64,000 nucleotides of DNA, taken from positions 640,001-704,000 of the forward strand of contig OZ220741.1 of assembly GCA_965116885.1 (NCBI GenBank), read 5' to 3'. The notes below the pieces were generated by a model. That model did not search any database, was not told where the DNA came from, and worked only from the letters and a program-made list of their open reading frames with translations. This DNA comes from Candidatus Latescibacterota bacterium (GTDB lineage Bacteria > Latescibacterota > UBA2968). The position numbers were made by a program, and so were the translations under genes. Positions 3,530 through 60,300 of this stretch are shown in pieces (positions within the stretch are counted from its first letter, which is position 1; every line of letters begins with the position of its first letter).

Positions 3530-3659
3530 ATTTGGATGGATTTGGGTTGCAATCTGAACGCGAACATCCCGTGCCAAAACGCGAGGACTATGTATGTGTG
3601 ATCAGATGGTATGCGCATCGCCTTTTTCCGCATTCAGGAAGTACGACTGTTGTACAGCA

Positions 3660-3703
3660 TAAAGGTCTATATATAAACCAATAAGATTATATATAGACCT
3701 TTA
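3660..3703. repeat. perfect 17-bp inverted repeat TAAAGGTCTATATATAA-N10-TTATATATAGACCTTTA
   Basis: Read directly, in the AT-rich intergenic region upstream of the CARF-bEBP gene. Confidence 0.85.
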
Positions 3704-3996
3704 TTGTAGCTCTATAACATAGATTAGAGACGATCTAATTATTGTTGGACTATATATCGCCCAATTTTTTGAAAAATTGTTTGGTAATGTTTATGGTGAC
3801 ATATATATTGTGAACTCTCTCAAAAATAATTGATGATTTATACATACTCCTCCAAAATTTTGTGAATCATACATCAACCACTCAGACCTGTCCCATTAGA
3901 TGCTACGGAGTCTATTACAAACAGTCAGAGATTAAAATTTTAAAAATACTGTTTTAGACTACAAAATTCAATGAAATGACTCAAGAGGATAAAGAT

Positions 3997-5640
3997 ATGC
4001 AACACAAATTGGTCGCTGTAGTCGGCAACACACCACAAGTTATGACAGAAATCTTCTGGGCATTGCGTGTCCAGCACAAAGTGCCCATCGATGAAGTATT
4101 TTTGATAACGACAACAGAAGGACAAAAAACCTGCCAAGAACGCCTTTTGGATGAAGGTCGCTTTGACAAGATGTTGTCGGATTACAAGATCGATCCCAAT
4201 ACTGTCGCGTTCAAGCCCGATCATATCCATGTATTTGAAGATGCTGAAGGCAATTTTTTAGACGACATCCGCACCTCAGAAGATAATCGTCTGGCTCGGG
4301 ACCAACTTTTCCGATGGATTGAAAATTGGACGAAGAATGCCCATGTCGCTTTACACTGCTCGCTCGCAGGTGGACGTAAGTCAATGGGATACTTACTCGG
4401 AGCTGCTATCCAATTTTTTGGTCGGTCACAAGATCGCCTGTATCATGTGCTGGTCACGCCACAAGCAATTGAAACAAATCCCGATTTTTTCTTTCCACCC
4501 GTGCACGAAGCGCAAATCCCCACATCAGACGGACAAAAAATTTCTACTGCTGATGTACGTATTGAATTGGCTGAATTGCCTTATGTATCCGTAAGAGATA
4601 TATCCGCATTTGACGATGAAAACTATGACCTAATTCTACAGAAAACGCAAGCAGAAGTGAGACGTGTTCCACGTCTAAGAGCAGAAAACAAACGGCTGAG
4701 AGAAACATCGGGCAATGCTGGCGGCTTGATCGGAAATAGCTTTGCAATGCAAAAAACCAAAGACCGGATTCGACAAGTTGCTGGTGCAGATGATGCAACC
4801 GTGTTGATTTTGGGTGAAACGGGAACGGGTAAAGAGCGCGCAGTTGCAGCACTACATGAACAGAGTACGAGAAAAAATAAACCATTCATAGCAGTTAACT
4901 GCGGTGCATTTCCAGGTGAACTTTTGGATGTAGAGCTATTCGGTGCGGTTCCAGGTGCTTATACCGGACAAGCCGGACCGCGTGAGGGTGCTTTTCGCGC
5001 AGCTAATGGCGGGACCCTTTATCTTGATGAAATCGGAGAATTATCACATGAAGGGCAGGCGAAGCTGTTGCGCGTATTACAAGAAAAGAAAGTGCGCCCG
5101 GTTGGCAGTGATAAACAAGAGGAAGATGTTGATGTACGCATTGTTGCGGCGACCAATCGCGACTTGAAGGCCAGAGTTCAAGAAAAAGCTTTCCGAGAAG
5201 ACCTGCTGTACCGCCTCAATGTTTGGACCATTGAAATGCCACCGTTGCGAGAACGACGCGAAGATATACCGGAGTTAATCGACCTGTTTTGTGAACAATT
5301 TAATGAAAAATACAAACGCAATGTTGTGGGCTTTGATGCCCCAGCCATAGAAGCTATGTGTCGCTACACCTGGCCGGGCAATGTGCGCGAGCTTGAACAT
5401 GAAGTTGAGCGCATCGTCATTGCTGCCCCACAGAGTGCATTTCGCGTACATAAGGAAGACATAGCCAGGCATATTATTGAATCATCAGATTTAGACACGG
5501 GTAGTGGGACACTCAAAGAGCAAGTGGCGCAGTTTAAGAAGCAGAAGATTCAGGAAATACTGGCGCAAACTCAGGGCAGTGTTAAACGCGCCGCGAATAT
5601 ATTGGGTATTAATGAATCAACGGTGAGCCGAAATCGGTAA
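3997..5640 (+). CDS. NE0113-family CARF domain fused to sigma54-dependent enhancer-binding protein (AAA+ and Fis-type HTH)
   Basis: N-terminus: VAVVGNTPQVMTEIFWAL, DDIRTSEDN, HCSLAGGRKSMG, GRSQDRLYHVLV, FFFP (Cas NE0113-type CARF motifs). C-terminus: Walker A GETGTGKE, ELFG, GAYTGQ (GAFTGA-loop variant), Walker B LYLDEI, RIVAATNRDL, FREDLLYRL, WPGNVREL, HTH AANILGINESTV. RBS GAGGA favours ATG 3997; alternative ATG at 3976. Confidence 0.88.
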   Translation: MQHKLVAVVGNTPQVMTEIFWALRVQHKVPIDEVFLITTTEGQKTCQERLLDEGRFDKMLSDYKIDPNTVAFKPDHIHVFEDAEGNFLDDIRTSEDNRLARDQLFRWIENWTKNAHVALHCSLAGGRKSMGYLLGAAIQFFGRSQDRLYHVLVTPQAIETNPDFFFPPVHEAQIPTSDGQKISTADVRIELAELPYVSVRDISAFDDENYDLILQKTQAEVRRVPRLRAENKRLRETSGNAGGLIGNSFAMQKTKDRIRQVAGADDATVLILGETGTGKERAVAALHEQSTRKNKPFIAVNCGAFPGELLDVELFGAVPGAYTGQAGPREGAFRAANGGTLYLDEIGELSHEGQAKLLRVLQEKKVRPVGSDKQEEDVDVRIVAATNRDLKARVQEKAFREDLLYRLNVWTIEMPPLRERREDIPELIDLFCEQFNEKYKRNVVGFDAPAIEAMCRYTWPGNVRELEHEVERIVIAAPQSAFRVHKEDIARHIIESSDLDTGSGTLKEQVAQFKKQKIQEILAQTQGSVKRAANILGINESTVSRNR

Positions 5641-5726
5641 AGAGTAAAGGATAGAGTGAGGGATCGCGGTCATCTCGCCTGCATGGATTTACAGAGAAAA
5701 TCCCAAAAATATGAGTTATAAAAGGC

Positions 5727-5761
5727 GTGCATTTTTGCCTATCGCACAGGCAAAAATGCCT
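5727..5761. promoter_or_regulatory. putative upstream activator sequence 1: two 14-bp quasi-palindromes GTGCATTTTTGCCT and AGGCAAAAATGCCT, 21 bp apart
   Basis: The first box starts 134 bp upstream of the -24 GG; the same arrangement recurs at 7061-7095. Confidence 0.7.
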
Positions 5762-5807
5762 GTTTGAACATCTCATCGTTCATTTCCTGTTTCAAAAAAA
5801 TATCACA

Positions 5808-5820
5808 CAACCTGTTGTTT
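5808..5820 (-). promoter_or_regulatory. IHF-like site in sigma54 cassette 1
   Basis: Minus strand AAACAACAGGTTG, one mismatch to WATCAANNNNTTR, located between the UAS and the -24/-12 box. Confidence 0.5.
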
Positions 5821-5859
5821 TTTTTGATCTCTGAGGAAATTCGGAGATTTTTTTGTGTT

Positions 5860-5875
5860 TGGCACGCGATTTGCA
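5860..5875 (+). promoter_or_regulatory. sigma54 (-24/-12) promoter upstream of cas6
   Basis: TGGCACGCGATTTGCA is an exact TGGCAC-N5-TTGC consensus (GG-N10-GC). Confidence 0.88.
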
Positions 5876-6053
5876 AATAGAAACTGTCAGAATCAGGATG
5901 GGCAGGATGCAAGGATGATCAGGATACCCCCGACCCCACCCAGGGGGTTAGATACCGCAACACATCCGTCGAGATGACCGGAAGATCCCATTTAGTCATG
6001 CATTTGGGCCTATAGATGGGCGCAGAGATTATCCACTATTCAAGGAGATATTG

Positions 6054-7013
6054 ATGTTTGACCTGAAACTCGCGTATATGCGCCTCCATTTCAAAGCGCG
6101 GGGCCATCTGCGCCTGCCTCCTTATAAAGGCTCCACATTTCGCGGGGCTTTTGGCGTGTCATTTAAGCGCGCGGTCTGTATTGTGCAACACGGCGAATGC
6201 GAGCGGTGTCTGATTCGGGCGCAATGCGTGTATCCATACGTATTTGACACACCAGTAGATAATGCACAGGGCATATTTCGAGGGTATCAAGAGGCACCGC
6301 ATCCCTATCTGATCGAACCCCCACTGGAAACAAAAACCGATTACGCGCCAGGCGACGAATTTGCCATTGGTCTGACCTTGATAGGCCGCGCACTGAATTA
6401 TATGCCCTACTTCATCTATACATTCCAGCGAATGGGAGACACAGGTCTTGGACGCGGACGCGGCAAATGCGATCTCATATCGGGCGAAGCACTACACCCG
6501 GATGGGACGTGGCAGAAGGTTTACGACGGAGCGAGCGAAATGTTGCAACAAGACGTACCCCATTTGACCGCACAGGATCTGATGCACAACGATATAGGAT
6601 CTCGGATTCGCCTCTCATTTGTAACACCTACCCAACTCAAAGCAGACCAAATATTGCAGCGCGGATTGGATTTCCCCGTACTCGTACGCGGGTTATTGCG
6701 GCGGTATTCGGCACTGGCCGCATTTCACGCAGACGGACCGCCAGATATAAATTATGCCGACTATATCTCGGCGGCAGAGAATATTCAAACCACATCCCAC
6801 AATTTGACCTGGCGCACCTGGGAGCGGTATTCAAACCGCAAGAACCGACGCATGAGCGTGAGCGGTTTTACAGGAGATGTGGTCTTTGAAGGCGACATGA
6901 CACAATTTCACCCCCTGCTGGCCCTGGGCGTGCCGATACACGTTGGCAAGTTGACCAGCTTTGGGATGGGGCAATACGCTATAAAAGGAAGAAGGGTGAA
7001 GGGTGAAGGGTGA
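6054..7013 (+). CDS. cas6: CRISPR pre-crRNA processing endoribonuclease Cas6
   Basis: GSTFRGAFG, Cys cluster CIVQHGECERCLIRAQCVY, PHPYLIEPP, C-terminal G-rich loop HVGKLTSFGMGQY; AAGGAG RBS. Confidence 0.9.
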   Translation: MFDLKLAYMRLHFKARGHLRLPPYKGSTFRGAFGVSFKRAVCIVQHGECERCLIRAQCVYPYVFDTPVDNAQGIFRGYQEAPHPYLIEPPLETKTDYAPGDEFAIGLTLIGRALNYMPYFIYTFQRMGDTGLGRGRGKCDLISGEALHPDGTWQKVYDGASEMLQQDVPHLTAQDLMHNDIGSRIRLSFVTPTQLKADQILQRGLDFPVLVRGLLRRYSALAAFHADGPPDINYADYISAAENIQTTSHNLTWRTWERYSNRKNRRMSVSGFTGDVVFEGDMTQFHPLLALGVPIHVGKLTSFGMGQYAIKGRRVKGEG

Positions 7014-7060
7014 AGGCAATAGCATGACCTGTTTTATTCCCAGCAGAAATTGTCAAACAA

Positions 7061-7095
7061 GTGCAAAATTGCACAGAGAACGTGCAGAAATGTAC
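7061..7095. promoter_or_regulatory. putative upstream activator sequence 2: GTGCAAAATTGCAC and GTGCAGAAATGTAC, 21 bp apart
   Basis: Same motif, same 21-bp spacing and same 134-bp distance to the -24 GG as UAS 1; both are followed by TTGAACAT. Confidence 0.7.
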
Positions 7096-7140
7096 GCTTG
7101 AACATGTTGGTGTCAATTTGATTTCAGAAAAAATATCGTA

Positions 7141-7153
7141 TAACATATTGTTT
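7141..7153 (-). promoter_or_regulatory. IHF-like site in sigma54 cassette 2
   Basis: Minus strand AAACAATATGTTA, one mismatch to WATCAANNNNTTR, at the position equivalent to cassette 1. Confidence 0.5.
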
Positions 7154-7193
7154 TCTCATAAATTAAAAAATAAATTCAAATTTTCCTCCATTT

Positions 7194-7209
7194 TGGCACG
7201 CGGATTGCA
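7194..7209 (+). promoter_or_regulatory. sigma54 (-24/-12) promoter upstream of DUF1232/YkvA gene (and possibly the cmr operon)
   Basis: TGGCACGCGGATTGCA is an exact TGGCAC-N5-TTGC consensus. Confidence 0.88.
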
Positions 7210-7271
7210 TAAACAAGAGGTGCTCGCAAAAAAGTTTTTAATCCGCAGTAAAAACCAAATGGAGGAATACC

Positions 7272-7622
7272 ATGAAGAATCGAAACAATCAAGGGTATAG
7301 GAAATATTATTCTCAGGACAGCTTCTGGAAAAAGTTGCTCAAATTCGCACGTACCGCGGGCCGGGAAGTCGTTGAGCATGCCCTATCACTCTACTACACC
7401 GCGCAAGCTCCCGACACACCTGCCTGGGCCAAAACGGTCATCACCGGGGCACTGGGGTACTTTATTCTTCCAGCCGATGCAATTCCCGACCTGATCCCGG
7501 CCGTCGGTTACGGCGATGACCTGGGTGCGCTGGCCGCAGCACTCGCAGCCGTGGCGGCTCATGTCACGCCTGAAATCAAAGCCCGCGCGAAAGAAAAAGC
7601 CGCTGAGTGGTTTGGTGAGTGA
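7272..7622 (+). CDS. YkvA / DUF1232 family small membrane-associated protein
   Basis: GGAGGA RBS; FWKKL, TPAWAK, GALGYFILPADAIPDLIPAVGYGDD family signature. Confidence 0.85.
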   Translation: MKNRNNQGYRKYYSQDSFWKKLLKFARTAGREVVEHALSLYYTAQAPDTPAWAKTVITGALGYFILPADAIPDLIPAVGYGDDLGALAAALAAVAAHVTPEIKARAKEKAAEWFGE

Positions 7623-7882
7623 AGTGTAATCCGCAGATGACGCAAATAAATAAAGAGGGGCTGGATAGACTGGCTGCTGACCGCTAAGAGTGGGAAGGAG
7701 ATGAACCACGTACTCTATTGCGCTATTTTCACAGGGATTGTATCCTGTGCAATTCAGGACATCAAGACCGCGTCCTTTGTTCGGTTTCAGAAAGTGGAGC
7801 GACCCACTGCGGTTATAAGAAACGACGTATAAAGAAATCTATGCAAGGAGACAATACGATTTAGTTCCAAAGGAGAAGCGTA

Positions 7883-8722
7883 ATGAATAGGACAGTGTTG
7901 AATCTTGAAACTGTAACACCAATGTTTTTACATGGTGAGAATAGTCGAAATCTCGAACTTCGACCACCGCCGTTCAAATCACTGATGCGTTATTGGTGGC
8001 GAACTGTGCAGGATTGCGAATGGAAATCGCTTCAGAAGGACGAAGCAAAATTATTTGGTAGCACAGATCGTAAAGCACCATTCTCAATTCGTATTTTAGG
8101 AGAAACGGAACTGGACCGTAGGCGCTATAAACCGTTGCCACATCGAACTGATAATCGTGGTTTTCAGACAGATGCGTATAAAGAGGGACAGTCATTTGAC
8201 CTGTATCTGATTACAAAAAACGGATCAAATACTTCGACTTATGAACAGATTGCAAAACTCGGCTTTTTGCTCGGCGGCGTTGGGAATCGATCACGACGTG
8301 GATTCGGTTCGATTCGTGAAACAAACTGGAATTTCACAGACGTTTCTGATCTACGGCAGGAAGTTTTGAATACTCTAAACGCTGTCGCAGGCACTAATCA
8401 TTTTCAGATGATGGGCCAGATCATTGAATCTAAACTCACTCGTTTTCCAGATTATCCTGTTATTATGTCTATCTATTTTGGCAATCCAACGCCCCAGATT
8501 GACACCCTATTAAGGAAAATCGGACAGGCGACTCATACTCATAAAGATGATGCTTTGGGTTATGCAAAAGGAAGACAACGGCTGGCTTCACCTATTCATG
8601 TTCGTATCCAGAAGATGGGATGGAAATATATTCCAATTGTGACCCAACTTTACTTTCCGAAATTCAAACCAGAGAATTTTGAACAAAAGCAAAAGGATTT
8701 TATTGACGCCATCATCACTTAG
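7883..8722 (+). CDS. cmr1: type III-B RAMP Cmr1
   Basis: LETVTPMFLHG, ELRPPPFKSLMRYWWR, EAKLFGS, LGGVGNRSRRGFGS, RLASPI. Confidence 0.9.
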   Translation: MNRTVLNLETVTPMFLHGENSRNLELRPPPFKSLMRYWWRTVQDCEWKSLQKDEAKLFGSTDRKAPFSIRILGETELDRRRYKPLPHRTDNRGFQTDAYKEGQSFDLYLITKNGSNTSTYEQIAKLGFLLGGVGNRSRRGFGSIRETNWNFTDVSDLRQEVLNTLNAVAGTNHFQMMGQIIESKLTRFPDYPVIMSIYFGNPTPQIDTLLRKIGQATHTHKDDALGYAKGRQRLASPIHVRIQKMGWKYIPIVTQLYFPKFKPENFEQKQKDFIDAIIT

Positions 8723-8732
8723 GAGGCTTTCT

Positions 8733-10619
8733 ATGAGTGGCAACCGGACGAAACGTCTCATGCTCATGTTTACAATTGGTCCTGTGCAATCGTTTATTGA
8801 AGCAGCTCGGAAGACAGAGGACTTGTGGATGGGGAGTTATATTCTGTCTTATCTTATCGCTAAAGCAATGGACAAAGTTCGTGGCGACGATATTGAGCTG
8901 ATATATCCCGCTATTGGAAACCAATCGCCATTTGAATTTTGGAAACAACAAGATTTCGCAACCCCATCTTTTCCAAATCTTTTTTTAGCAATTGGCAACG
9001 GTATTGAGGTTTCTCAGAATGCATTGATTGAACTCGCAAAAGATGCTGAACGTACTATAAAAACCGAATTTGAGCGAATGGCGGAATGTGTGATTGATAA
9101 GGCATTCAGCAACAAGTGGCGTGGTACTTATGTAGAGGAAGTGTTCAAGCGACAAATCTCGGATTTTTTTGATGTCTATTGGGTGATTACCCAAGAAGCA
9201 GAGCAAAATTACGGGGATTGGTACGATCACACCGCAAGCAATCTCGCAGCTATCAAAAATTGCCGAACATTCGCACAGATCCGTGAGTTTGGACGGAAGT
9301 GTTCACTTGATGGAACACGCGAAATTCTCCATTTGAGACAAGACGAAACTGTGCGAGAAGCAATGAAATGGTGGCAGGGCTTTGCTGAACGCGAACCGAA
9401 GTATTGCCGCAGGGAAGAGGCTCTGTGTGCCGTTTCATTAACCAAACGGATGGGAAGGCATTTTCTGGAGACCCAATCGGAATTTTCAGATCATTTTTCT
9501 ATTCAATCTCTGAACTTTCCATCTACATCGGAGATAGCTACAGCGGACTTCAAAGAACAATTCCAACTCAATATTGGGGCCTTAGGCATTTATGGAGATT
9601 TCGTTAAAGAAGTCAAAAAGTTGAGGACATTGGACAACAAACCAGCAGATATTCCAATTATTCAACCGTTACCAAAAATCGGGATGCTCCAGGGGAATAT
9701 TGATGGCGAGTGGCTGTACGAAGAGACTTGGAACGAGTCCTATCTAAGGCGTTACTACAACATTGATGCAAAAAACCAGAATAAACAGATTCAGACTTGT
9801 AAGAGATTGCACCATAAACTTGTCCAATGTCTTGGTGAACCGGGGCGATATTATGCTGCCATTGCACTTGATGGCGATAACATGGGCGAGAAGATTCGGG
9901 AAGCTAAATGCAAGGAAGACCATGAAAAACGCAGCAATGATCTGATTCAATATACGAAAGATGCTCGTCGGATTACTGAACAAGAGCATCTCGGAAAACT
10001 GACCTATGCGGGTGGTGACGACATCCTTGCACTCGCAAACCTCAAAGACCTCTTACCTATACTGAAAGGCTTGCGCGAAACATTTCCCAATTTCACGACT
10101 GCTTCGGTAGGTGTATGTATTGCCCACAATAAAGTTCCACTGGGAGAGGTGCTTCAGCAAGCGCGTCAAATGGAGAAAGTAGCGAAAAATGAAGGTGAAC
10201 GGAATGCTCTTGGAATCACGCTGTTTAAGCACTCCGGAAATATCAGCCAGACAGTAACAAAGTGGACGCCCGGCGATTTGGATGTGCTCAATATTAGTGA
10301 GGAGTTACTCAAATTATTGAGCGATAATGAAATTTCTAAGCGTTTTTTGTACGCTTTCCGTGAGACATTTGCCAAATTAATTGAAGACGAAGATGATTTC
10401 GGGGAACTGGGCCGTCACCTTATTCAAGCTGAGTTTGAACGGATTATGGAACGGGCACATTCGAACAAAAAAACAGAACTCAAAGAAAGTCAACAAACCA
10501 TCCATACACTTACTCAACTCATCTATCATATCCAGCCTTTCTCTCACTTTCTCGGATATTTAGAAATTATCAATTTCATTGCGAGGATAAAAAATGAAAC
10601 TGTTTCTCCAACCCAATGA
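8733..10619 (+). CDS. cas10: type III-B Cas10/Cmr2, Palm cyclase motifs intact, no HD domain
   Basis: ATG 8733 after AGGAGG; starts at FTIGPVQSFIEAARKTEDLWMGSYILS; FPSTSEIA, YYAAIALDGDNMG, YAGGDD, SVGVCIAH. Confidence 0.93.
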   Translation: MSGNRTKRLMLMFTIGPVQSFIEAARKTEDLWMGSYILSYLIAKAMDKVRGDDIELIYPAIGNQSPFEFWKQQDFATPSFPNLFLAIGNGIEVSQNALIELAKDAERTIKTEFERMAECVIDKAFSNKWRGTYVEEVFKRQISDFFDVYWVITQEAEQNYGDWYDHTASNLAAIKNCRTFAQIREFGRKCSLDGTREILHLRQDETVREAMKWWQGFAEREPKYCRREEALCAVSLTKRMGRHFLETQSEFSDHFSIQSLNFPSTSEIATADFKEQFQLNIGALGIYGDFVKEVKKLRTLDNKPADIPIIQPLPKIGMLQGNIDGEWLYEETWNESYLRRYYNIDAKNQNKQIQTCKRLHHKLVQCLGEPGRYYAAIALDGDNMGEKIREAKCKEDHEKRSNDLIQYTKDARRITEQEHLGKLTYAGGDDILALANLKDLLPILKGLRETFPNFTTASVGVCIAHNKVPLGEVLQQARQMEKVAKNEGERNALGITLFKHSGNISQTVTKWTPGDLDVLNISEELLKLLSDNEISKRFLYAFRETFAKLIEDEDDFGELGRHLIQAEFERIMERAHSNKKTELKESQQTIHTLTQLIYHIQPFSHFLGYLEIINFIARIKNETVSPTQ

Positions 10620-11763
10620 TACCTTCTTTTTTCGCGACGGGCGTCCTTTTACAAAAGGCGAACAGTCTGAAGGTCATTCAATTTTTCCACCCCTTCCCTC
10701 GACAGTTCTCGGTGCGTTGCGTACTGCATACATCGCTGAATTTGGTGATCTATCGCTTTTCTATTCCGGCGGGATGCGAGAGACGATTGGTACGCCAGAA
10801 TCACTGGACAATGCTATTCAAGTGCGCGGTGTTTTTCTTGCAAATAGGCGAAGCAATCAGATGGGTCGAATGGAAATATTTTTTCCAGTGCCACTTGATC
10901 TGGTATATAAAAAAATAGAAAAGAGAGATGATCATACCCTGCTTCATTTACTGACGCCGCAATCTAAAAATTTTGCGTCGAACGGGATAATCAGCACGCC
11001 TCTTACATGGCTAAATTCCGAGTCCATTGATTTCGATGCAGATGGATTGTTACGACTGGGGGCAATCACACGATACTTACAAGGAAACAGTCAGAACCTG
11101 CTTCTTACAAACCGAGCAACATTGGTTGAGCGCGAAACCAAAACGGGTATCGCGCGGGATAGACACACTTTGTCGTCCGAAGAACACATGTTGTATCGTA
11201 TTGATATGTCGAGATTTAAAAATAGAGATGGCAATTACGGCTTTGTGGTAGAATATGAATGCCCTATGAATTTGCCACAAAAAGGACTTTTGAAATTAGG
11301 TGGAGAAGGCAAAGGTTTTGTCTATCAGCACAGCAACTATGATATTGATCCACTGTCCAGCCGTCTTGAGGCAGTCAAACGAGCCATCCAATCAACAAAC
11401 AGATTCAAGCTATATTTTGCAACGCCGACCATATTCCGGAACGGATGGTTACCTTCATGGTTGAATAGCGATACGCTTTCGGGTGAATACCCACTGGAGA
11501 ATACAGCACCAATTTCACTCAAATTAATCACCGCCGCGGTTGGTAAACCTGTTCCTGTTGGCGGATGGGACATGGCAAAAGGTGAGGCAAAACCCAACTA
11601 TCGCGCAGTGCCTGCTGGCAGCGTCTATTACTTTGAATTGATGGATAAAAATCGAATTGATGATTTAATCGCCGCTTTTCACTACCAAAACATTAGCGAG
11701 GAGCGTTCTGAGGAGGGATTTGGACTTACTCTTATCGGTGTCGCACAGGAGGGAAATGCATGA
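10594..11763 (+). CDS. cmr3: type III-B RAMP Cmr3
   Basis: PNDTFFFRDGRPF, FPPLPSTVLGALRT, KLGGEGK, GGWDM, AVPAGSVYYF, EGFG. Confidence 0.92.
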   Translation: MKLFLQPNDTFFFRDGRPFTKGEQSEGHSIFPPLPSTVLGALRTAYIAEFGDLSLFYSGGMRETIGTPESLDNAIQVRGVFLANRRSNQMGRMEIFFPVPLDLVYKKIEKRDDHTLLHLLTPQSKNFASNGIISTPLTWLNSESIDFDADGLLRLGAITRYLQGNSQNLLLTNRATLVERETKTGIARDRHTLSSEEHMLYRIDMSRFKNRDGNYGFVVEYECPMNLPQKGLLKLGGEGKGFVYQHSNYDIDPLSSRLEAVKRAIQSTNRFKLYFATPTIFRNGWLPSWLNSDTLSGEYPLENTAPISLKLITAAVGKPVPVGGWDMAKGEAKPNYRAVPAGSVYYFELMDKNRIDDLIAAFHYQNISEERSEEGFGLTLIGVAQEGNA

Positions 11764-13010
11764 AGACGCTTATAACACCAGTCGGCACATCGCTCTTTAC
11801 AAACTATCTTGATGAGAATGGGGACAGTGCCTTTAGACACAATTATGAAACAATCAGAAGATCTCCCGCTTCGGAATGGGATGAGTATGATTATGAAATT
11901 GAGGATCTAAAAACGTCCAGTCTTGAATTTATTAAAAAAGAAAAGGAATCCGCGTCTGCGGAACTTCAGAGTATCGCTAAAATTCAAGAAAAATTCAAAG
12001 AGGACCTCGAAGTTCGTCTATTTGCCTCAGACACGATTGCTTCGCGATTGGCTGCGAAGATTTTAGCGGATGATAAAGTGGCTTCAGTTTTAGGCGATAA
12101 TATCTCTGTCACATTCGATACACAAACAGATGTGATCAAGGGGCTTCAGGTTGAAGATCCCAAAGTCTTTTCGCAGGAAGGCCTGTCCAACTTGATTCAA
12201 AAGATCAATTCGGCCAGCAATAATGCCGGGGGCTATCAGGAACTTGCTATCAATATCACCGGAGGGTTCAAAGCCACCTTGCCATATCTGACGATTTTGG
12301 CACAACTCAATCGTGTTCCACTTTACTACACATTTGAAGATACTGAAGCACTCATCTCGATTCCACAAGCACCGTTAGTTATTGATTGGGGTTTGATTGA
12401 ACGCTATTCCGACGTTCTCAGAAAAATTGATGAGGGAATAGGAAATTGGTCGGCATTCAGAAACCAACATTACCAGGCTGTTCAAGATTTGGAGGCATTC
12501 ATTGAAGTTGTTGACGAAATGGCATTTCTTTCCCCTATTGGCCAAATTTTCTGGAATCACTATCAAAGATACTTTATCGTCGAATTGCCAAGAGGAAGTT
12601 ATTTCAAATATGACTTCAGAGAACGCGGCTTGATTGATCAATCCATTGAAGAGCTTTATAGACGGTTAGACACCGTTCTAAGACCAGATCTTCTCGATCT
12701 GGTGAAGTGCTATAAACGCATTCGCGATTTGGGACATAATGATGACTTAAATCATACTGGACAAATCCCAAATCCTACGAGAAGTCCGAATCGAGAAATG
12801 TTCATTTTCAAATCGACAAATGAAGAGCAGATACGGTTGCTATACACCTTTAAGGTGAATGAACGAGAGATCACTCGGCTTACAATATTTGATCTTCTTT
12901 GTCGAGATTTTAACCACAGTACTTATTTTGATACATGGAAACGCAAATTTGGTCGTCAAAATTTTCCTGATATTGACTTTGTCACACGCACATTTGAAAT
13001 TCCTTCATAG
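11760..13010 (+). CDS. APE2256/SSO1393-family CARF protein with C-terminal probable RelE-like domain (Cami1-like effector or ring nuclease)
   Basis: TPVGTSLFTN, SAELQS, FASDT, INITGGFKA, LYYTFE CARF motifs; LSPIGQIFW wHTH-like linker; about 150-aa C-terminal domain with FIFKS, IRLLY and NHSTY. The RelE call is tentative. Confidence 0.75.
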   Translation: MKTLITPVGTSLFTNYLDENGDSAFRHNYETIRRSPASEWDEYDYEIEDLKTSSLEFIKKEKESASAELQSIAKIQEKFKEDLEVRLFASDTIASRLAAKILADDKVASVLGDNISVTFDTQTDVIKGLQVEDPKVFSQEGLSNLIQKINSASNNAGGYQELAINITGGFKATLPYLTILAQLNRVPLYYTFEDTEALISIPQAPLVIDWGLIERYSDVLRKIDEGIGNWSAFRNQHYQAVQDLEAFIEVVDEMAFLSPIGQIFWNHYQRYFIVELPRGSYFKYDFRERGLIDQSIEELYRRLDTVLRPDLLDLVKCYKRIRDLGHNDDLNHTGQIPNPTRSPNREMFIFKSTNEEQIRLLYTFKVNEREITRLTIFDLLCRDFNHSTYFDTWKRKFGRQNFPDIDFVTRTFEIPS

Positions 13011-13032
13011 GTTTTAACAAGGAGAAACCAAA

Positions 13033-13995
13033 ATGTTCAAACAAGCTAAACCCCTCTTTCTTATCGTCGAAACCCCACTCCACGCTGGTAGCGGTAATGA
13101 CTTGGGCATTGTTGATCTCCCGATCCAGCGGGAAAAGCATACGGATTATCCAAAAATCGAAGCATCTGGACTAAAGGGCAGCATACGTGAAATTTTTGAT
13201 GCTCAAGGAAATAAATCTGAAATCGATCTTGTATTCGGCCCCGAACAAGGCGACTTACACGCTGGTGCTTTGGGATTTACGGATGCACGTCTCTTGCTTT
13301 TCCCAGTCAAGTCGGTCAAAAACGTGTTTGCCTGGGTAACCTGTCCCGCAGTTTTAGAGCGTTTCAAACATGACCTTGCCATCTGTCAGCCGAATATTGA
13401 GTTTATTGATGATCTCCCCGATAGTGAGGCGGTGACGACAGAGAGCGAACTAATTATTAAGGATAATAAAATCGTGCTGGAAGAATACACATTCGCGGTT
13501 AGCCAAAACAAAGAATGTGATGCTATTGCAGATTGGATTATCGAAAACGTTCTGCCAAAGGATCCGGGCTACAATTATTGGCGCGATAAGATGAAACGAG
13601 ATATGGTCGTGTTGACCGATGATGATTTCCGTGATTTCGTAACGCTTTCGACAGAAGTCATTGCCCGCACCAAAATCGACAGTGAAACCGGTACCGTTGC
13701 AAAAGGTGCGCTGTGGTACGAGGAATACTTGCCGACTGACTCTATTCTCTATTCGCTTGCCTTGACCACACCCATCTTTAAGGAAAATGACGCCGATAAA
13801 GGTATTTTCCAATTGACCGATCAGGATAAAGAAGAGAAACGCGATGAGTCGGAAAAGGTAATGGACTTCTTTGTGGATGGATTGCCGAATGTCATTCAGA
13901 TCGGCGGCAATGCAACCGTGGGCAAGGGTATAGTTCGTACACACGTTTATCAAAATGGAGGAGAAAACCATGCCACAAACTCCGACAATGCGTAA
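13033..13995 (+). CDS. cmr4: type III-B RAMP Cmr4 (target RNase)
   Basis: ETPLHAGSG, IVDLPIQRE (catalytic Asp present), DARLLLFPVKS, LWYEEYLP, QIGGNATVGKG. Confidence 0.95.
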   Translation: MFKQAKPLFLIVETPLHAGSGNDLGIVDLPIQREKHTDYPKIEASGLKGSIREIFDAQGNKSEIDLVFGPEQGDLHAGALGFTDARLLLFPVKSVKNVFAWVTCPAVLERFKHDLAICQPNIEFIDDLPDSEAVTTESELIIKDNKIVLEEYTFAVSQNKECDAIADWIIENVLPKDPGYNYWRDKMKRDMVVLTDDDFRDFVTLSTEVIARTKIDSETGTVAKGALWYEEYLPTDSILYSLALTTPIFKENDADKGIFQLTDQDKEEKRDESEKVMDFFVDGLPNVIQIGGNATVGKGIVRTHVYQNGGENHATNSDNA

Positions 13996-14368
13996 GGGAA
14001 TTGAACAAGGGCGTGCCAAGTACGCTTTTGAGGCAGTGAGCAGTGTTAATGGTGACAGATTGAAGAAAGAGTATAAATCCGCGGCAAAGAAACTCCCCGT
14101 CTTAATAAAAACGAATGGACTTGGGCAGTCTTTGGCATTCATTAAGAAAAGGAATAACGGGCACGACAGGCTATACGAACAAGTTGGAAACTGGCTCCAA
14201 GCCGTAGATACCAAACAGTTGGTTTCGACTGGCGAACTTGTGGAACAAGTCATCGAACTCAAATCACCCGACTATCGGCAAGTTACTGTCGAAACGCTCG
14301 CACTACTCAATTGGATTCGCCGATTTGTCGATGGACTCATGGATGATGTGGAGGAGAATGATGCTTAA
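13970..14368 (+). CDS. cmr5: type III-B small subunit Cmr5
   Basis: EQGRAKYAF, YKSAAKKLPVLIKTNGLGQSLAF, WIRRF; ATG 13970 after GGAGGAG. Confidence 0.92.
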   Translation: MPQTPTMRKGIEQGRAKYAFEAVSSVNGDRLKKEYKSAAKKLPVLIKTNGLGQSLAFIKKRNNGHDRLYEQVGNWLQAVDTKQLVSTGELVEQVIELKSPDYRQVTVETLALLNWIRRFVDGLMDDVEENDA

Positions 14369-15443
14369 TTTCCATCCATTGGATACGAGGGAACTGGTTC
14401 GCTCAAATAATCAGATTGATAATTTCGCGTTGCGTTACCGACATTCCTTGCAGGTTACTCGCGATGGTGAGAAATACAAATTTCAACTTTCCGATCCGAC
14501 GTTTAGTAAATCTTATGATGAATTGATTGAGCAGTTGCGAGAACGTCAAACAGAGCAATTTCTCCAATTTGTTATGCAGGATATCAGGCTTTACTGCGTT
14601 GATGCAACAGTTGATTGGCGACTAATTGTTGGCCTCGGCAGTGAGCATGTTCAAGAGACAAACATGACACTTCATCATATCTACGGCATTCCGTACATTC
14701 CCGGAAGTGCCGTGAAAGGCGTGTTGCGGCATTGGTGGGTGCAAGAGGATTTCGACAACAACGAAGACAAAGCACTGAAAGATAAAAATTTTCTCGCTCT
14801 CTTTGGAAGTCAAAAACGGCGCGGAGAAGTGCAATTTCTTGACGCCTATCCTGAGCAAGTCCATTTTGCGAAAGATATTATGAATCCACACTATCCCGAA
14901 TATTACAGTGGTAGCGCACCACCAACAGATTCTCAAAATCCAAGACCTATCAATTTTTTAACTGTTGAGAAGACCGCCTTTCGGTTCGCTTTCTTAGCGA
15001 AGAAGCAGAAACTTCTCGATAAACTCAAGGCACGATTTGAAGATGTATTAGAGCTGAAGGGCATCGGTGCGAAAACAGCGGTTGGCTATGGGTATTTCCG
15101 AAATTTTGAAGATCAGACCGACAAAATTATTGACACATTCAAGCGTCAACAACAAGCTGAACGGGAAGAAGCGGAAAGACAGCAAGAAGCCGAGAGATTG
15201 GCAAGTCTTTCTCCTGTCGAACAAATTGTCGAAGAATTGAATGGTCTCGCTGACAATTCTGTGGATGAAGCGCGTGTTACCGATATCTACAACATAGAAC
15301 TCCTATCTCTTGAAGGAGATGATCAACAGATGGTCGCACAGGCATTGAAAGCTTATTGGGAACGTATCAATAAGTGGAGTGGCGGTTCGAGGAAACAGAG
15401 AACAAAGGTGCAAAAGGTTAAGTCAATTTTGGGAGAGAGTTGA
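14358..15443 (+). CDS. cmr6: type III-B RAMP Cmr6
   Basis: RLIVGLG, HHIYGIPYIPGSAVKGVLR, FLDAYP, DIMNPHY, PINFL, GIGAKTAVGYG; start 14358 or 14361. Confidence 0.93.
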   Translation: MMLNFHPLDTRELVRSNNQIDNFALRYRHSLQVTRDGEKYKFQLSDPTFSKSYDELIEQLRERQTEQFLQFVMQDIRLYCVDATVDWRLIVGLGSEHVQETNMTLHHIYGIPYIPGSAVKGVLRHWWVQEDFDNNEDKALKDKNFLALFGSQKRRGEVQFLDAYPEQVHFAKDIMNPHYPEYYSGSAPPTDSQNPRPINFLTVEKTAFRFAFLAKKQKLLDKLKARFEDVLELKGIGAKTAVGYGYFRNFEDQTDKIIDTFKRQQQAEREEAERQQEAERLASLSPVEQIVEELNGLADNSVDEARVTDIYNIELLSLEGDDQQMVAQALKAYWERINKWSGGSRKQRTKVQKVKSILGES

Positions 15444-16179
15444 CTATAGTAATCTGGCAAAAATCTTTGGTGAACGGGTGGGTGAAACAGGAGCAGACTT
15501 TTGTGCGATCAACGCCACAGGTGGCTATAAAGCCCAGATCGCCATTGCCGTTCTGATGGGCCAGGCACTCGACATTCCAGTGTATTACAAACATGAACGC
15601 TTTGATGCCATTATCCCGTTTCCACCTATGCCAGTGGCACTCGATTTTTCAATCTGGCAGCGGGCCAGTGGCATGTTTATGGTACTCGGCAAAGGCGACA
15701 TTATTCCGTGGGAGCAGTATCGTGAGGATTGGGATGAACGATTTGAGCCACTGGTCAATCGCGAGGAAATTGATGGCGAGGACTATCTGGAACTCTCGGC
15801 GACGGGACAGATCTTTCACGAGACCTTCCGAACCCGTTTTCAGCAGATAAAGGCCCACAGTCTTCCGCGACCAGCAACAGATAATGAGAAGTAAGCCCCC
15901 AATCTGGGCAATCACGGATACGGACAAGCTCAGACTCCCATTTTGCGGTTCCTGCAAAAGCTTACTGATGAGGTCCCTTACATCCGCTTTTGCCACTCAA
16001 CGTATTGGAACCCGGACCTGCCTGAATCAACCCGGTTTCGGTCATCGGGCGGAGAAGTCCAGGGCATATACTCCAATGGAACCTGGTGCGTGAAGTTTAA
16101 GGTGCATACAACATCAGATGATCAGGAGGTATTACCCGGCATTGTGGCCGATCTCAACGACTGGATAGAGAAAGGTTAA
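15444..16179 (+). pseudogene. decayed second APE2256-family CARF gene (5' truncated, in-frame TAA at 15892-15894)
   Basis: Has INATGGYKAQ and VYYKHERF but lacks the N-terminal VGTS/SAE motifs and a proper start; ORFs 15379..15894 and 15943..16179 are in the same frame, separated by a single TAA. Confidence 0.8.
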
Positions 16180-16460
16180 AAGAGAGTTTTCAGTTTGATT
16201 GAAGCCAGTGGATGCGACCCAGAGGCGTCGATCAATGTCATGCTGGCAGCTTGAGCGTGTAGCGAACAACGCGCGTGAGGATTATAGGCATTTCCTCAAG
16301 TTCTGGTGGGTCGCAAATTTCTAACTTTTTGCAGGAGTGTGTATTATGAACAAAGAATCGAAAGCAATTTTTCATTTTTGGGAGGATTTTGTATGTCAAA
16401 ATGGCCTGAGTCGCAAACCGCCTTGTAACTATCTGTAACAGAGGGAATAACACAGACGGT
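16180..16460 (+). promoter_or_regulatory. CRISPR leader
   Basis: AT-rich non-coding stretch directly 5' of the first repeat with repeated GTCGCAAA motifs; the repeat orientation ending in ATTGAAAC puts the leader on this side. Confidence 0.65.
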
Positions 16461-18877
16461 ATCAGGAAGGATTACCCGACTACTGGGGTATTGAAACTTC
16501 TTTGACAAACTGCTTGCCATAGGCATCCACATTGTCATCAGGAAGGATTACCCGACTACTGGGGTATTGAAACATAACCCTTACCTTTCCTGTCTTGTGC
16601 TCCGTGGATATATCATCAGGAAGGATTACCCGACTACTGGGGTATTGAAACTTGGTCGCGCGCACGTATCCCTAAGGGCTTATTAAACACATCAGGAAGG
16701 ATTACCCGACTACTGGGGTATTGAAACTTGTTTGTGATGATCATATAGATGCGCTTGGCCTCTTCAAAATCAGGAAGGATTACCCGACTACTGGGGTATT
16801 GAAACAGGTCTGAGTTGACTTCTTTGAGCTGGTTTGTCATGTTTCGATCAGGAAGGATTACCCGACTACTGGGGTATTGAAACTCATACGTCTCAAGGAT
16901 ACCATGGTCACAGAAATATTCTGCCCATCAGGAAGGATTACCCGACTACTGGGGTATTGAAACTTTACTTGCGAAGTAGCCATTGCCAAATCTCCTTATG
17001 TGATCAGGAAGGATTACCCGACTACTGGGGTATTGAAACCGTTCAATCGAAACCTCATCATCATATCCGTACATTACCATCAGGAAGGATTACCTGACTA
17101 CTGGGGTATTGAAACAATTTTGCGTCTTGCAAGGTCTTGTATGTGCCTATCAATTCATCAGGAAGGATTACCCGACTACTGGGGTATTGAAACCAACGTC
17201 CCAAATTCGGTTTCTGATTTCCAGGCATCAGGAAGGATTACCCGACTACTGGGGTATTGAAACTAATTGGGAAAGTAATGACGATCTGGTGCATAGAAAC
17301 AATCAGGAAGGATTACCCGACTACTGGGGTATTGAAACTTAACGCGGCGTGTAAAAGGATTGTTCTTTTTTCGATTAGCCATTTTTATCAGGAAGGATTA
17401 CCCGACTAATGGGGTATTGAAACACAATAGCGATTGCCGCTTGCAACTCCTGTGCCGTGTATATCAGGAAGGATTACCCGACTAATGGGGTATTGAAACT
17501 CGTTATGGTTGGGCTGCTCCCGAATAGAGGCTTCCGCATCATGAAGGATTACCTGACTATTGGGGTATTGAAACATCATATGAGCGTACATCATCGGAAC
17601 CTGGGGCGGCGGATTGATCATGAAGGGTTACCCAACTACTGGGGTATTGAAACTTGTAGATTTTATCAAACCAGTTGCGCTGAGGATCCATCAATCAGGC
17701 AGGACTACCCGATTATTGAGGTATTGAAACCCGATTCACAGGTTCTTCCAATACGCTTCCGCACCGTGAACCAGGAAGGGTTACCTGCTTACTGGGGTAT
17801 TGAAACACATATGGACCACGGTCATTGACACGAACAATCACCGCTTATCAGGAAGAATTACTCGCCTATTGGGGTATTGAAACATCGCGTGAAGCGTGCC
17901 AAGGCCCACGCATCCGTCCATCAGGCAGGAGTACCCGATTACTGGGGTATTGAAACTCATTTTCTGTTTTCTCTTGAATGAAGTTACCATCGGACGTAAT
18001 CAGGAAGGACTATCTGCTTATTGGGATATTGAAACGTGCCGGTCATGACCATGCCTGCCAAGCAGACATGACATTCAGGAAGGATTACTCGCTTACTGGG
18101 GTATTGAAACTTATCAAGTGCGCTATCACAATCGTCGAACACAATCAAGATCAGGCAGGACTACCCGACTAATGGGGTATTGAAACGTGTACGACATCTC
18201 GCCAATCAGGTCGGGACCGATCAGCCGTCAGGCAGGACTACCCGATTACTGGGGTATTGAAACCCGTCAACACTCTTCTTGGCATACAGCGTTGCCATAC
18301 CTTGAATCAGGAAGGATTACCCGACTAATGGGGGATTGAAATCCAGGGTAGTTTTTGTGTTTCTCGATGTCCACACCAAATCAGGAAGGATTACCTGCTT
18401 ACTGGGGTATTGAAACGCCATTTCAATTGGGTACGTGTCAAACTTGATAAAACCCATCAGGAAGGATTACCCGACTAATGGGGTATTGAAACTTACCTCC
18501 GTGTGAAATTGGTATCGGTCTGTCTCGTCCCATCAGGAAGGATTACCCGACTAATGGGGTATTGAAACGCCTGTTGCGCTATGATTGCGTTCAGGGATTC
18601 GATCTTGTCAATCAGGAAGGATTACCCGACTAATGGGGTATTGAAACCGATCTACGCCGGGGCGAGAATTGATATTTGTCTGGATGAATCAGGAAGGATT
18701 ACCCGACTAATGGGGTATTGAAACTTGTCAAGTGCACGTTTCACGGTCATGTGTGAACATTGTATCAGGAAGGATTACCCGACTAATGGGGTATTGAAAC
18801 TTGACGGCATCGTACAACGCCTTCTGGATTGTGTCCAGATATCAGGAAGGATTACCCGACTAATGGGGTATTGGAAC
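16461..18877 (+). CRISPR. CRISPR array: 32 repeats of 37 nt, consensus ATCAGGAAGGATTACCCGACTA(C/A)TGGGGTATTGAAAC, 31 spacers of about 33-48 nt
   Basis: Counted by hand: first repeat 16461-16497, last (ending TTGGAAC) 18841-18877; internal stem TACCC/GGGTA; 3' ATTGAAAC handle typical of Cas6-processed repeats. Confidence 0.98.
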
Positions 18878-59862: not shown

Positions 59863-60300
59863 TCAATGTGAATCTGAGCCTGGATCCTCAGATTCTGTAT
59901 CGAGTGCAGAGAGTATAGATTCTGCCCATTGGACAACAGCCTCGGCAAGCCTCACCGCTTCCCGATATTCTTCTTCATCAACTGATTCTGACACATCACC
60001 GGGATAACGTAAAACAGTTGCATAAACGGACAGCTTTGCAGATTGAGAAAGTTCTGGTATTTTGGAAACATCTTCGGGAAGGAGATCAATCAACCGCTCG
60101 ATAATATGCGTTTTGGGAAAAGCAACCCCTCTGTGTACAAGCACAGCTTTGATGCTCTTTTCTGCTGCCTGTTGGGCATGGAAACACAAAAGCTCGTAAA
60201 AACTATCTTCCGGTAAGGAAACTTGTGCCAGAGCCAGGTCGCCTCTGGCATATCGAATCCAATCAGCCGGTGAACCAGGTGTTGAGACATCAGGCGGCAT
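59863..60300 (-). CDS. HEPN domain protein (toxin partner of MNT)
   Basis: WIRYARGDL, CFHAQQAAEKSIKA, PKTH, RYPG. Confidence 0.85.
   Translation of the reverse strand: MPPDVSTPGSPADWIRYARGDLALAQVSLPEDSFYELLCFHAQQAAEKSIKAVLVHRGVAFPKTHIIERLIDLLPEDVSKIPELSQSAKLSVYATVLRYPGDVSESVDEEEYREAVRLAEAVVQWAESILSALDTESEDPGSDSH

Follow-up and report, generated by a model that had tools for sequence, protein, structure and literature searches.

Two sigma-54 enhancer-promoter cassettes beside a CARF-type activator as a candidate transcriptional switch at a type III-B CRISPR locus of a Latescibacterota bacterium

Type III CRISPR signalling is so far known to act on nucleases, on other enzymes, and on one simple transcription factor, Csa3. 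This article deals with a locus at which a sigma-54 activator may have to be added to that list. It lies in a stretch of 64,000 nucleotides from Candidatus Latescibacterota bacterium (assembly GCA_965116885.1, contig OZ220741.1, positions 640,001 to 704,000 of the forward strand), here called the window and numbered from its first letter. The organism is known solely through metagenome-assembled genomes. The stretch encodes a bacterial enhancer-binding protein (bEBP) with a CARF sensor domain, followed by two homologous cassettes of upstream palindromes and a sigma-54 promoter, the first ahead of cas6 and the second ahead of a small DUF1232 protein gene and a cmr operon.

The closest relative in build is RtcR, the activator of the rtcBA RNA-repair operon, which has the same order of CARF, NtrC-type AAA+, and Fis-type helix-turn-helix (HTH) domains and likewise an adjacent sigma-54 promoter. 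However, the CARF domain of RtcR is divergent, whereas that of the window bEBP is of the canonical CRISPR type (TIGR02584, CARF5), and RtcR targets rtcBA, whereas the predicted targets here are cas6, DUF1232, and cmr. The closest relative in logic is Csa3, a CARF protein with a winged HTH that responds to cyclic tetra-adenylate (cA4) and also joins a CARF sensor to DNA binding over cas genes; according to the accessible parts of three papers (PMC8844856, PMC7480081, PMC9704534), cas expression and type III signalling feed back on each other through it. Csa3 is a two-domain regulator of the sigma-70/archaeal type, whereas the window system interposes an ATP-driven AAA+ motor and sigma-54 between sensor and promoter, which would imply that basal activity is very low and that the enhancer acts from afar. 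As for promoter anatomy, promoters of the NtrC/NifA type (glnAp2, nifH) have tandem dyad sites at an upstream distance of over 100 bp and on one face of the helix, an IHF bend site, and a GG-N10-GC element. The cassettes share the tandem sites, GG-N10-GC, and a putative bend site with them, but differ in operator sequence, in the input domain of the activator (CARF instead of a receiver or GAF domain), and in that one of the two has a putative terminator between bend site and -24. In short, the cassettes combine an RtcR-like build, Csa3-like logic, and NtrC-like promoter anatomy.

Control of cas genes by sigma-54 and a bEBP is not without precedent. Nla28, a sigma-54 activator of Myxococcus xanthus, has CRISPR-associated genes among its targets (bioRxiv 10.1101/2021.11.28.470282), although it governs a broad regulon in the response to starvation, and the accessible part of that preprint gives no sign of a CARF sensor or of a place in a CRISPR locus. 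The 2014 CARF paper (PMC4012209), as far as it is accessible, treats RtcR and RtcR-like CARF-AAA+-HTH proteins, as well as NE0113 as a CARF protein without an effector domain. In the corresponding parts of later surveys, Csa3 is named as the only characterised non-nuclease CARF effector (2022 review, PMC9704534) and no sigma-54 entry appears among accessory genes (2018, PMC6546367). No publication that places a CARF-bEBP within a type III locus came up in our literature search; the architecture may be listed in the CARF census of 2020 (Makarova et al., NAR 48:8828).

We consider it likely that the cassettes are two paralogous sigma-54 promoters with their own enhancers, through which the neighbouring bEBP would control cas6 on the one hand and DUF1232 plus the cmr operon on the other, as a CARF switch fed by cyclic oligoadenylate (cOA). 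In this scheme, dimers of the Fis-type HTH of the bEBP would bind the 14-bp palindromes whose starts precede the -24 GG by 134 and 113 bp; these lie two helical turns apart and hence on the same face of the DNA. Some 47 bp ahead of the GG, at the A-tract and AAC-N4-TTGTTT, an IHF-like protein would introduce a bend, and the AAA+ ring would contact the sigma-54 holoenzyme waiting at TGGCACG-N4-TTGCA and open the promoter. Going by the usual -12 spacing, the expected starts of transcription are close to 5886 and 7220. The bEBP transcript would end at a hairpin with a T-run in cassette 1, and cas6 would thereby be insulated from read-through. As the CARF domain is of the canonical cOA-binding kind, the most likely input would be cOA from the GGDD-bearing Cas10 of the locus itself. 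Upon detection of an invader transcript, cOA would then raise Cas6, the Cmr complex, and the CARF-RelE effector in a positive feedback. All this suggests that the bacterium may switch its type III system on by an alarm signal and does not keep it running constantly. If so, some bacteria hold a costly and potentially self-toxic machinery transcriptionally off and induce it upon alarm. The parts (operator, bend site, promoter, and activator) form a directly testable set, and ligand, sign of control, and loop kinetics are all measurable.

The similarity of the two cassettes is well beyond chance. A preliminary description of this stretch had proposed homologous cassettes with base-exact spacing, and on reading window sequence 3600-9000 we found the motifs where it had put them; in each cassette, 134 bp separate the start of the first box from the first G of the -24 GG. 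At the offset of 1334 bp that it gave, 79 of 149 positions are identical without gaps, whereas shuffled sequences averaged 40.1 (standard deviation 5.2, maximum 65) and none of 20000 reached 79; among all ungapped offsets of the two intergenic regions, 1334 also gives the best match. Base-exact spacing holds for the boxes, TTGAACAT, and the -24/-12 elements, all at 1334, and breaks down for the A-tract and the IHF-like site, which are displaced by 1333. MAFFT places two compensating 1-bp indels here, so that the overall cassette length is kept while the interior is shifted. The IHF-like site matches eight of the nine specified positions of WATCAANNNNTTR, which we take to be the IHF consensus, in both cassettes (on the minus strand in cassette 1).

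Both -24/-12 elements fit all specified positions, with GG and GC doublets 10 bp apart. Perfect TGGCACG-N4-TTGCW sites number exactly two in the 64-kb window, both ahead of a gene on the same strand; with at most one mismatch there are three (0.92 expected). The genome encodes one rpoN (PF04552, 204 bits, an open frame of 497 aa) and about 25 bEBPs, judged by 25 strong PF00158 matches. Strict sigma-54 promoters number 35 in its 5.56 Mb, compared with 7, 6, and 10 in three genomes simulated with an order-1 Markov model. The organism uses sigma-54. The architecture that had been recognised from the letters (upstream activating sequence, IHF-like site, and -24/-12) is supported on comparative grounds, with two perfect promoter elements, an rpoN gene, and a layout that recurs in the 17 cassettes described next.

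To follow the cassettes beyond this genome, 168 genomes of the phylum were searched in six frames with the CARF part as query. Nineteen genomes matched, the window's own (G000) included, 13 of them at 63% identity or more. From 18 kb taken around 11 strong matches plus two weaker ones, a comparison of the window with 11 related loci (numbered with an L) was drawn. Left out were G122 (contig end), L040 (whose CARF is not joined to a sigma-54 domain), L041 (short contig), and four weak CARF-only matches. A contig search with a single protein returned one close locus and seven distant CARF-only loci, of which the distant ones were not used, and a metagenome scan with the CARF alignment found zero relatives. 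One member of the protein cluster is labelled Candidatus Poribacteria.

With TTGCG permitted at -12, a sigma-54 promoter lies 110-350 bp past the bEBP stop codon in all 12 loci, and a second cassette follows cas6 in five of them (the window included), giving 17 cassettes in total. Five blocks are kept in every one: the proximal palindrome, TTGAACAT, an ATTT block, A6-TATC...AAC-N4-TTG-TTT, and TTTGGCACGC-N3-TTGC. They persist even between the diverged cas6-type and DUF1232-type cassettes; TTGAACAT is near-invariant and the IHF-like core AAC-N4-TTG-TTT invariant or nearly so. A proximal box with at most one mismatch stands at -112 to -114, or at -104, in 14 of the 17; the exceptions are cassette 1 of the window and L031, which have the AGGCA variant of this box in common, and L032 (two mismatches). 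The two cassettes with a box at -104 have a 10-bp deletion, that is one helical turn, which fits a face-of-helix constraint on a site of this kind. The distal box is found at -133 or -134 in ten cassettes, and in the other seven a pair lies farther upstream, at -202/-203 and -183/-184 (n=5) or at about -261 and -240 (n=2). The right half of the box together with TTGAACAT reads TTGCAC-N3-TTGAAC across the 17 cassettes, which amounts to a weak third element that resembles the boxes and is shifted by 8 bp.

The boxes thus keep company with the bEBP family. Within the 206 kb of loci, 33 of 42 boxes (at most one mismatch) fall inside cassettes, and only one of the 33 other strict sigma-54 promoters of the window's genome has such a box within 280 bp. 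In L034, the bEBP and its cassette have an FGE-sulfatase and a kinase as neighbours instead of cas genes, which argues that the boxes follow the bEBP and not the cas genes. GCA-N4-TGC pairs had been proposed as the operator of the adjacent CARF-bEBP. The linkage on which that proposal depends stands in 12 of 12 loci, while the motif has to be corrected to the 14-bp palindrome GTGCA-N4-TGCAC, the consensus of the family. The suggested motif discovery at homologues had the expected outcome, a box-to-promoter layout after every orthologous bEBP gene (12 loci, 17 cassettes), and binding of the boxes by the bEBP is predicted on this ground. The coordinates of all features are collected in Table 1.

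Table 1. Features of the cassettes and of the surrounding CRISPR locus (positions in the window; distances of boxes refer to the -24 GG)
Feature	Position	Strand	Details
CARF-AAA+-HTH bEBP, 547 aa	3997-5640	+	CARF N-terminal, sigma-54 AAA+, Fis-type HTH C-terminal
Cassette 1	5727-5875		Ends 179 nt ahead of the cas6 ATG (6054), same strand
Cassette 1, distal box	5727-5740		GTGCATTTTTGCCT; 2 mismatches to GTGCA-N4-TGCAC; starts at -134
Cassette 1, proximal box	5748-5761		AGGCAAAAATGCCT; perfect palindrome with variant AGGCA half-sites; starts at -113
Cassette 1, conserved block	5764-5771	+	TTGAACAT; directly 3' of the proximal box
Cassette 1, A-tract	5795-5804		AAAAAATATC
Cassette 1, IHF-like site	5808-5820	-	Follows the A-tract
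Cassette 1, terminator-like hairpin	5826-5849 (whole, 5826-5859)	+	10-bp stem, 4-nt loop, then TTTTTGTGTT
Cassette 1, sigma-54 promoter 1	5860-5875	+	TGGCACGCGATTTGCA
cas6	6054-7013	+	crRNA-processing endoribonuclease; PF10040 1e-18; PADLOC Cas6 330 bits
Cassette 2	7061-7209		Ends 63 nt ahead of the DUF1232 ATG (7272), same strand
Cassette 2, distal box	7061-7074		GTGCAAAATTGCAC; perfect match to consensus; -134
Cassette 2, proximal box	7082-7095		GTGCAGAAATGTAC; 1 mismatch; -113
Cassette 2, conserved block	7098-7105		TTGAACAT
Cassette 2, A-tract	7128-7137		AAAAAATATC
Cassette 2, IHF-like site	7141-7153		Follows the A-tract
Cassette 2, sigma-54 promoter 2	7194-7209	+	TGGCACGCGGATTGCA
DUF1232 small protein	7272-7622	+	First gene past promoter 2; PF06803 3e-12
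Type III-B gene block	7883-15443	+	Profile and PADLOC matches
cmr1	7883-8722	+	
cas10/cmr2	8679-10619	+	GGDD present, HD domain absent
cmr3	10594-11763	+	
CARF7-RelE effector	11760-13010	+	PADLOC 342 bits over the full profile length
cmr4	13033-13995	+	
cmr5	13955-14368	+	
cmr6	14238-15443	+	
CRISPR array	16461-18800	+	32 repeats of 37 nt ending in ATTGAAAC

The preliminary description saw in the paired motif a means of finding the regulon of the bEBP; the genome-wide scan brought up no wider regulon. Perfect GTGCA-N4-TGCAC occurs five times in the 5.56 Mb, compared with seven times in a simulated genome, and is thus not enriched; of the pairs spaced 19-23 bp apart, only cassette 2 itself is convincing. 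Two further pairs, at 2696914 and 2981807, were rejected, having GC-rich spacers and no strict sigma-54 promoter nearby. As predicted from these scans, the regulon is the locus itself. It does not seem to include the activator gene, as in none of the 12 loci do the 500 bp ahead of the bEBP gene contain a box with at most one mismatch.

Many of the 35 genomic sigma-54 promoters have repeated upstream elements of their own that are unlike the cassette boxes. At least seven (1229614, 1234849, 268367, 4854526, 23867, 3147723, 1195593) share the element GTGTTCATTTTCGGACAC...ATCGGACAC, and a second group (1098838, 4403867, 4416556, 4431591, 5209372) shares yet another. These shared elements point to multi-copy sigma-54 regulons, with large bEBPs (about 1080 aa) nearby.

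The activator itself is made up of three recognisable parts: a CARF domain (PF09623 at residues 19-208, in the 1e-37 range), a sigma-54 AAA+ domain (PF00158, 1e-62, 211 bits with a cut-off of 20.2), and a Fis-type HTH (PF02954, 26.7 bits with a cut-off of 22, profile positions 3-37 of 42). Walker A (GETGTGKE) and Walker B (LYLDEIGE) motifs are present, and the loop in the place of the sigma-54 contact reads GAYTGQ. An alternative in-frame ATG lies upstream at 3976. Over the 12 loci the bEBPs fall into clade A (seven proteins, 78-100% identical) and clade B (five proteins, 48-51% identical, with GAFTGA-like loops). The HTH regions are similar in both, which is compatible with a shared operator.

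Its CARF part scores 174 bits with TIGR02584 (equivalog cut-off 80.65) and 243 bits with PADLOC CARF5, and the signature loops GNTPQVMTE and SLAGGRKSMG are invariant in all 12 sequences. In a Foldseek search with an AlphaFold2 model (predicted local distance difference test 76.5), the nearest structures were the cA4 ring nucleases Sis0455 and Sso2081 and the CARF domain of Cad1, with top matches at E 6e-6 to 3e-4 and template-modelling scores of about 0.4-0.5 on the query. Searching the solved structures by sequence with the CARF profile gave a best match of only E 0.03, to Sis0455. We considered and rejected an identification as RtcR: PADLOC RtcR_PspF2 (345 bits) covers the AAA-HTH part only (residues 227-545; profile positions 152-473), and NCBIfam RtcR NF038308 reaches 307 bits with a cut-off of 650, over residues 222-516 only, whereas the CARF belongs to TIGR02584/CARF5. 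Nor does an rtcB/rtcA operon adjoin the gene, which is followed by cas6, DUF1232, and cmr1-6 (this concerns the locus, as rtcBA was not searched for elsewhere in the genome). By its profiles and motifs, the sensor is best described as a canonical CARF of the cOA type and not of the RtcR type. From family membership and from the GGDD Cas10 in the locus, we infer that it binds cOA, with an effect presumed to be activating.

Critically speaking, several observations weigh against this reading, the first group of which concerns the protein and its sites. The sigma-54 contact loop reads GAYTGQ instead of GAFTGA, with an unusual final Q. A GAYTGA loop is reported as functional in HrpS and variants of the contact loop as tolerated, in the accessible parts of the sources, and our literature search found nothing on a final Q. 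The bEBPs of the window, L029, and L031 end nine residues into the recognition helix of the HTH, relatives being 10-16 residues longer. Three of the four half-sites of cassette 1 are AGGCA instead of GTGCA and retain only the GCA-N4-TGC core, so that one protein must accept both forms. The bend site has a similar weakness: the genome holds four HU/IHF-family genes, three of them closer to the IHF models yet below the equivalog cut-offs of these models, and the bending role of an IHF-like protein is to be read with this in mind. Finally, the cassette ahead of cas6 is no better conserved than cas6, the cas6-type cassettes being 81-89% identical to that of the window and the cas6 coding sequences 87-94%; much of the likeness is therefore shared recent ancestry of the cas6 module. 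On these numbers, we rejected extra-strong purifying selection on this cassette. The footprint proper would be what persists between cas6-type and DUF1232-type cassettes. Cassette similarity also persists in four loci where the bEBP gene is only 55-61% identical, a pattern that reads as a cas6-plus-promoter module exchanged or retained while the regulator diverged.

The non-canonical loop and shortened C-terminus would suit a different explanation, namely that the palindromes are operators of another regulator (another of the roughly 25 bEBPs, or a repressor) and that the CARF-bEBP acts elsewhere or is inactive. We regard this as very improbable. The boxes co-occur with the bEBP family in 12 of 12 loci, one of them lacking cas genes; they are nearly absent from the 33 other sigma-54 promoters, and their pairs from the remaining genome. 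Moreover, GAY(T/S)GQ is retained in six of the seven clade-A proteins (GTYTGQ in L032) and all seven frames are intact.

A last point against the preferred reading concerns its signal. The Cas10 of the cmr operon is the only one in the genome and sits downstream of promoter 2. Sigma-70-like sites were no more frequent than in shuffled sequence and none was found on the plus strand in 5641-8000, so that a cOA loop needs some route of basal expression; two such sites lie upstream of the bEBP gene, at 3769-3809. A pure positive loop would be hard to start in this arrangement, and the adjacent bEBP might drive both promoters without its CARF being activated by Cas10-made cOA. The CARF may have a different input, such as the RNA ends or protein partners proposed for RtcR; it may mediate a cOA-triggered shut-off; or it may act as a ring nuclease. 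The nearest solved folds are indeed ring nucleases, NCBI names TIGR02584 a ring nuclease, and RtcR is a CARF-bEBP governed by non-cOA inputs according to the accessible parts of PMC7790460 and PMC9650030. On the other hand, the CARF is a canonical CARF5, as in Cad1, which binds cA4/cA6, the RtcR_PspF2 profile fits the AAA-HTH part only, and in 10 of the 11 related loci the module has a cyclase-competent type III system as its neighbour. Weighing both sides, we judge control of the promoters by something other than cOA activation to be unlikely, though a serious competitor of the cOA-fed switch.

The boxes of cassette 1 could also act in RNA. They pair as a perfect 12-bp stem (-19.8 kcal/mol, z -3.46), and in the window and L031 the changes from GTGCA to AGGCA and the complementary TTTT/AAAA spacers raise the complementarity between the boxes over that in L029. 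They might thus serve mainly or additionally as a hairpin at the 3' end of the bEBP transcript (a terminator or stabiliser) and not as protein sites. However, two similar palindromes are always complementary by construction, the stem is followed by CTGTTTGAAC and not by a T-run, and it is not among the hits of the terminator scan. After cas6, where these boxes recur at the same distance, they form only two small separate hairpins. A better terminator lies 65 bp downstream of the box stem, at 5826-5859, and its hairpin folds at -11.2 kcal/mol, a value equalled by none of 200 shuffles, and was called by the terminator scan. A hairpin with a T-run before the -24 element occurs in nine of the 12 bEBP-adjacent cassettes and in none of the five after cas6, cassette 2 of the window among them; in L032 the stem is altered on both arms with pairing still predicted. 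Hence, of the two candidates for a bEBP terminator, the first box pair (raised as a caveat in the preliminary description) is less likely than this hairpin, which sits between bend site and -24 and probably serves the bEBP gene as its intrinsic terminator. An RNA role for the boxes themselves appears improbable, and we retain their reading as binding sites of the bEBP.

Seen over the 12 loci, the unit of bEBP, cassette, cas6, cassette, and DUF1232 adjoins type III systems of several types. III-B genes stand beside it in the window and L029, III-A genes (HD-Cas10 and Csm2) in L031 and L032, and RAMP proteins fused to a cold-shock domain, with short Cas10s, in L033, L037, and L039. In L032, L033, and L037 cas6 is absent and the cassette stands directly ahead of DUF1232, which is the first gene past the cassette in the window, L029, L032, L033, L035, L037, L038, and L039, whatever the type III subtype. 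Tentatively, we see here a possible portable and self-contained module, consisting of a cOA-type CARF-AAA+ activator, one or more cassettes, cas6, and a DUF1232 membrane protein, which would wire type III immunity (III-B, III-A, or III-D-like) to sigma-54, leaving the interference complex and its CARF-RelE effector near-silent until an alarm nucleotide appears and then engaging positive feedback. If true, cOA would here reach transcription through an ATP-driven enhancer mechanism, a first among bacteria. The conserved pairing of DUF1232 with the module makes an uncharacterised membrane protein a candidate for a type III accessory factor; a literature search found nothing linking DUF1232 with type III CRISPR.

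As for the remaining genes of the window locus, Cmr1, Cas10/Cmr2, Cmr3 to Cmr6, cas6, and an array were all found, in agreement with type III-B. The CARF protein within the operon was also considered as a HEPN Csx1, which was rejected in view of its PADLOC match to CARF7-RelE; it is a probable cOA-activated mRNA interferase, judged from its profile. Beside the array, cas1 and cas2 are absent within the window. The 1 kb from cmr6 to the first repeat (15444-16460) contains no sigma-54 element, and the array therefore probably has its own leader promoter.

Some smaller observations may be added. The predicted 5' leader of cas6 (5886-6053, about 168 nt) contains reiterated CAGGATG-like words, and Rfam gave zero matches in 5500-8000 at E up to 1. 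In L029, which is 91% identical, the promoter lies only about 50 nt ahead of cas6, and the longer leader insert of the window is also present in L031 and L039. At its 3' end (6991-7016), cas6 has a perfect 7-nt tandem repeat, GAAGGGT x 3.7, giving a repetitive C-terminal tail before cassette 2. The cold-shock fusions mentioned above are proteins of 845-875 aa with the N-terminal cold-shock domain joined to a RAMP region (oriented positions: L033, 5346-7964; L037, 6088-8715; L039, 6968-9505), and the short Cas10-like proteins that adjoin them measure 531-547 aa, an unusual type III variant. In L038, an IS4/IS5-family transposase (oriented 6882-7748) lies between DUF1232 and cas10. Distant from the CRISPR locus, the window also encodes a stand-alone HEPN-domain protein at 59863-60300 on the minus strand (PF05168, 1.7e-25).

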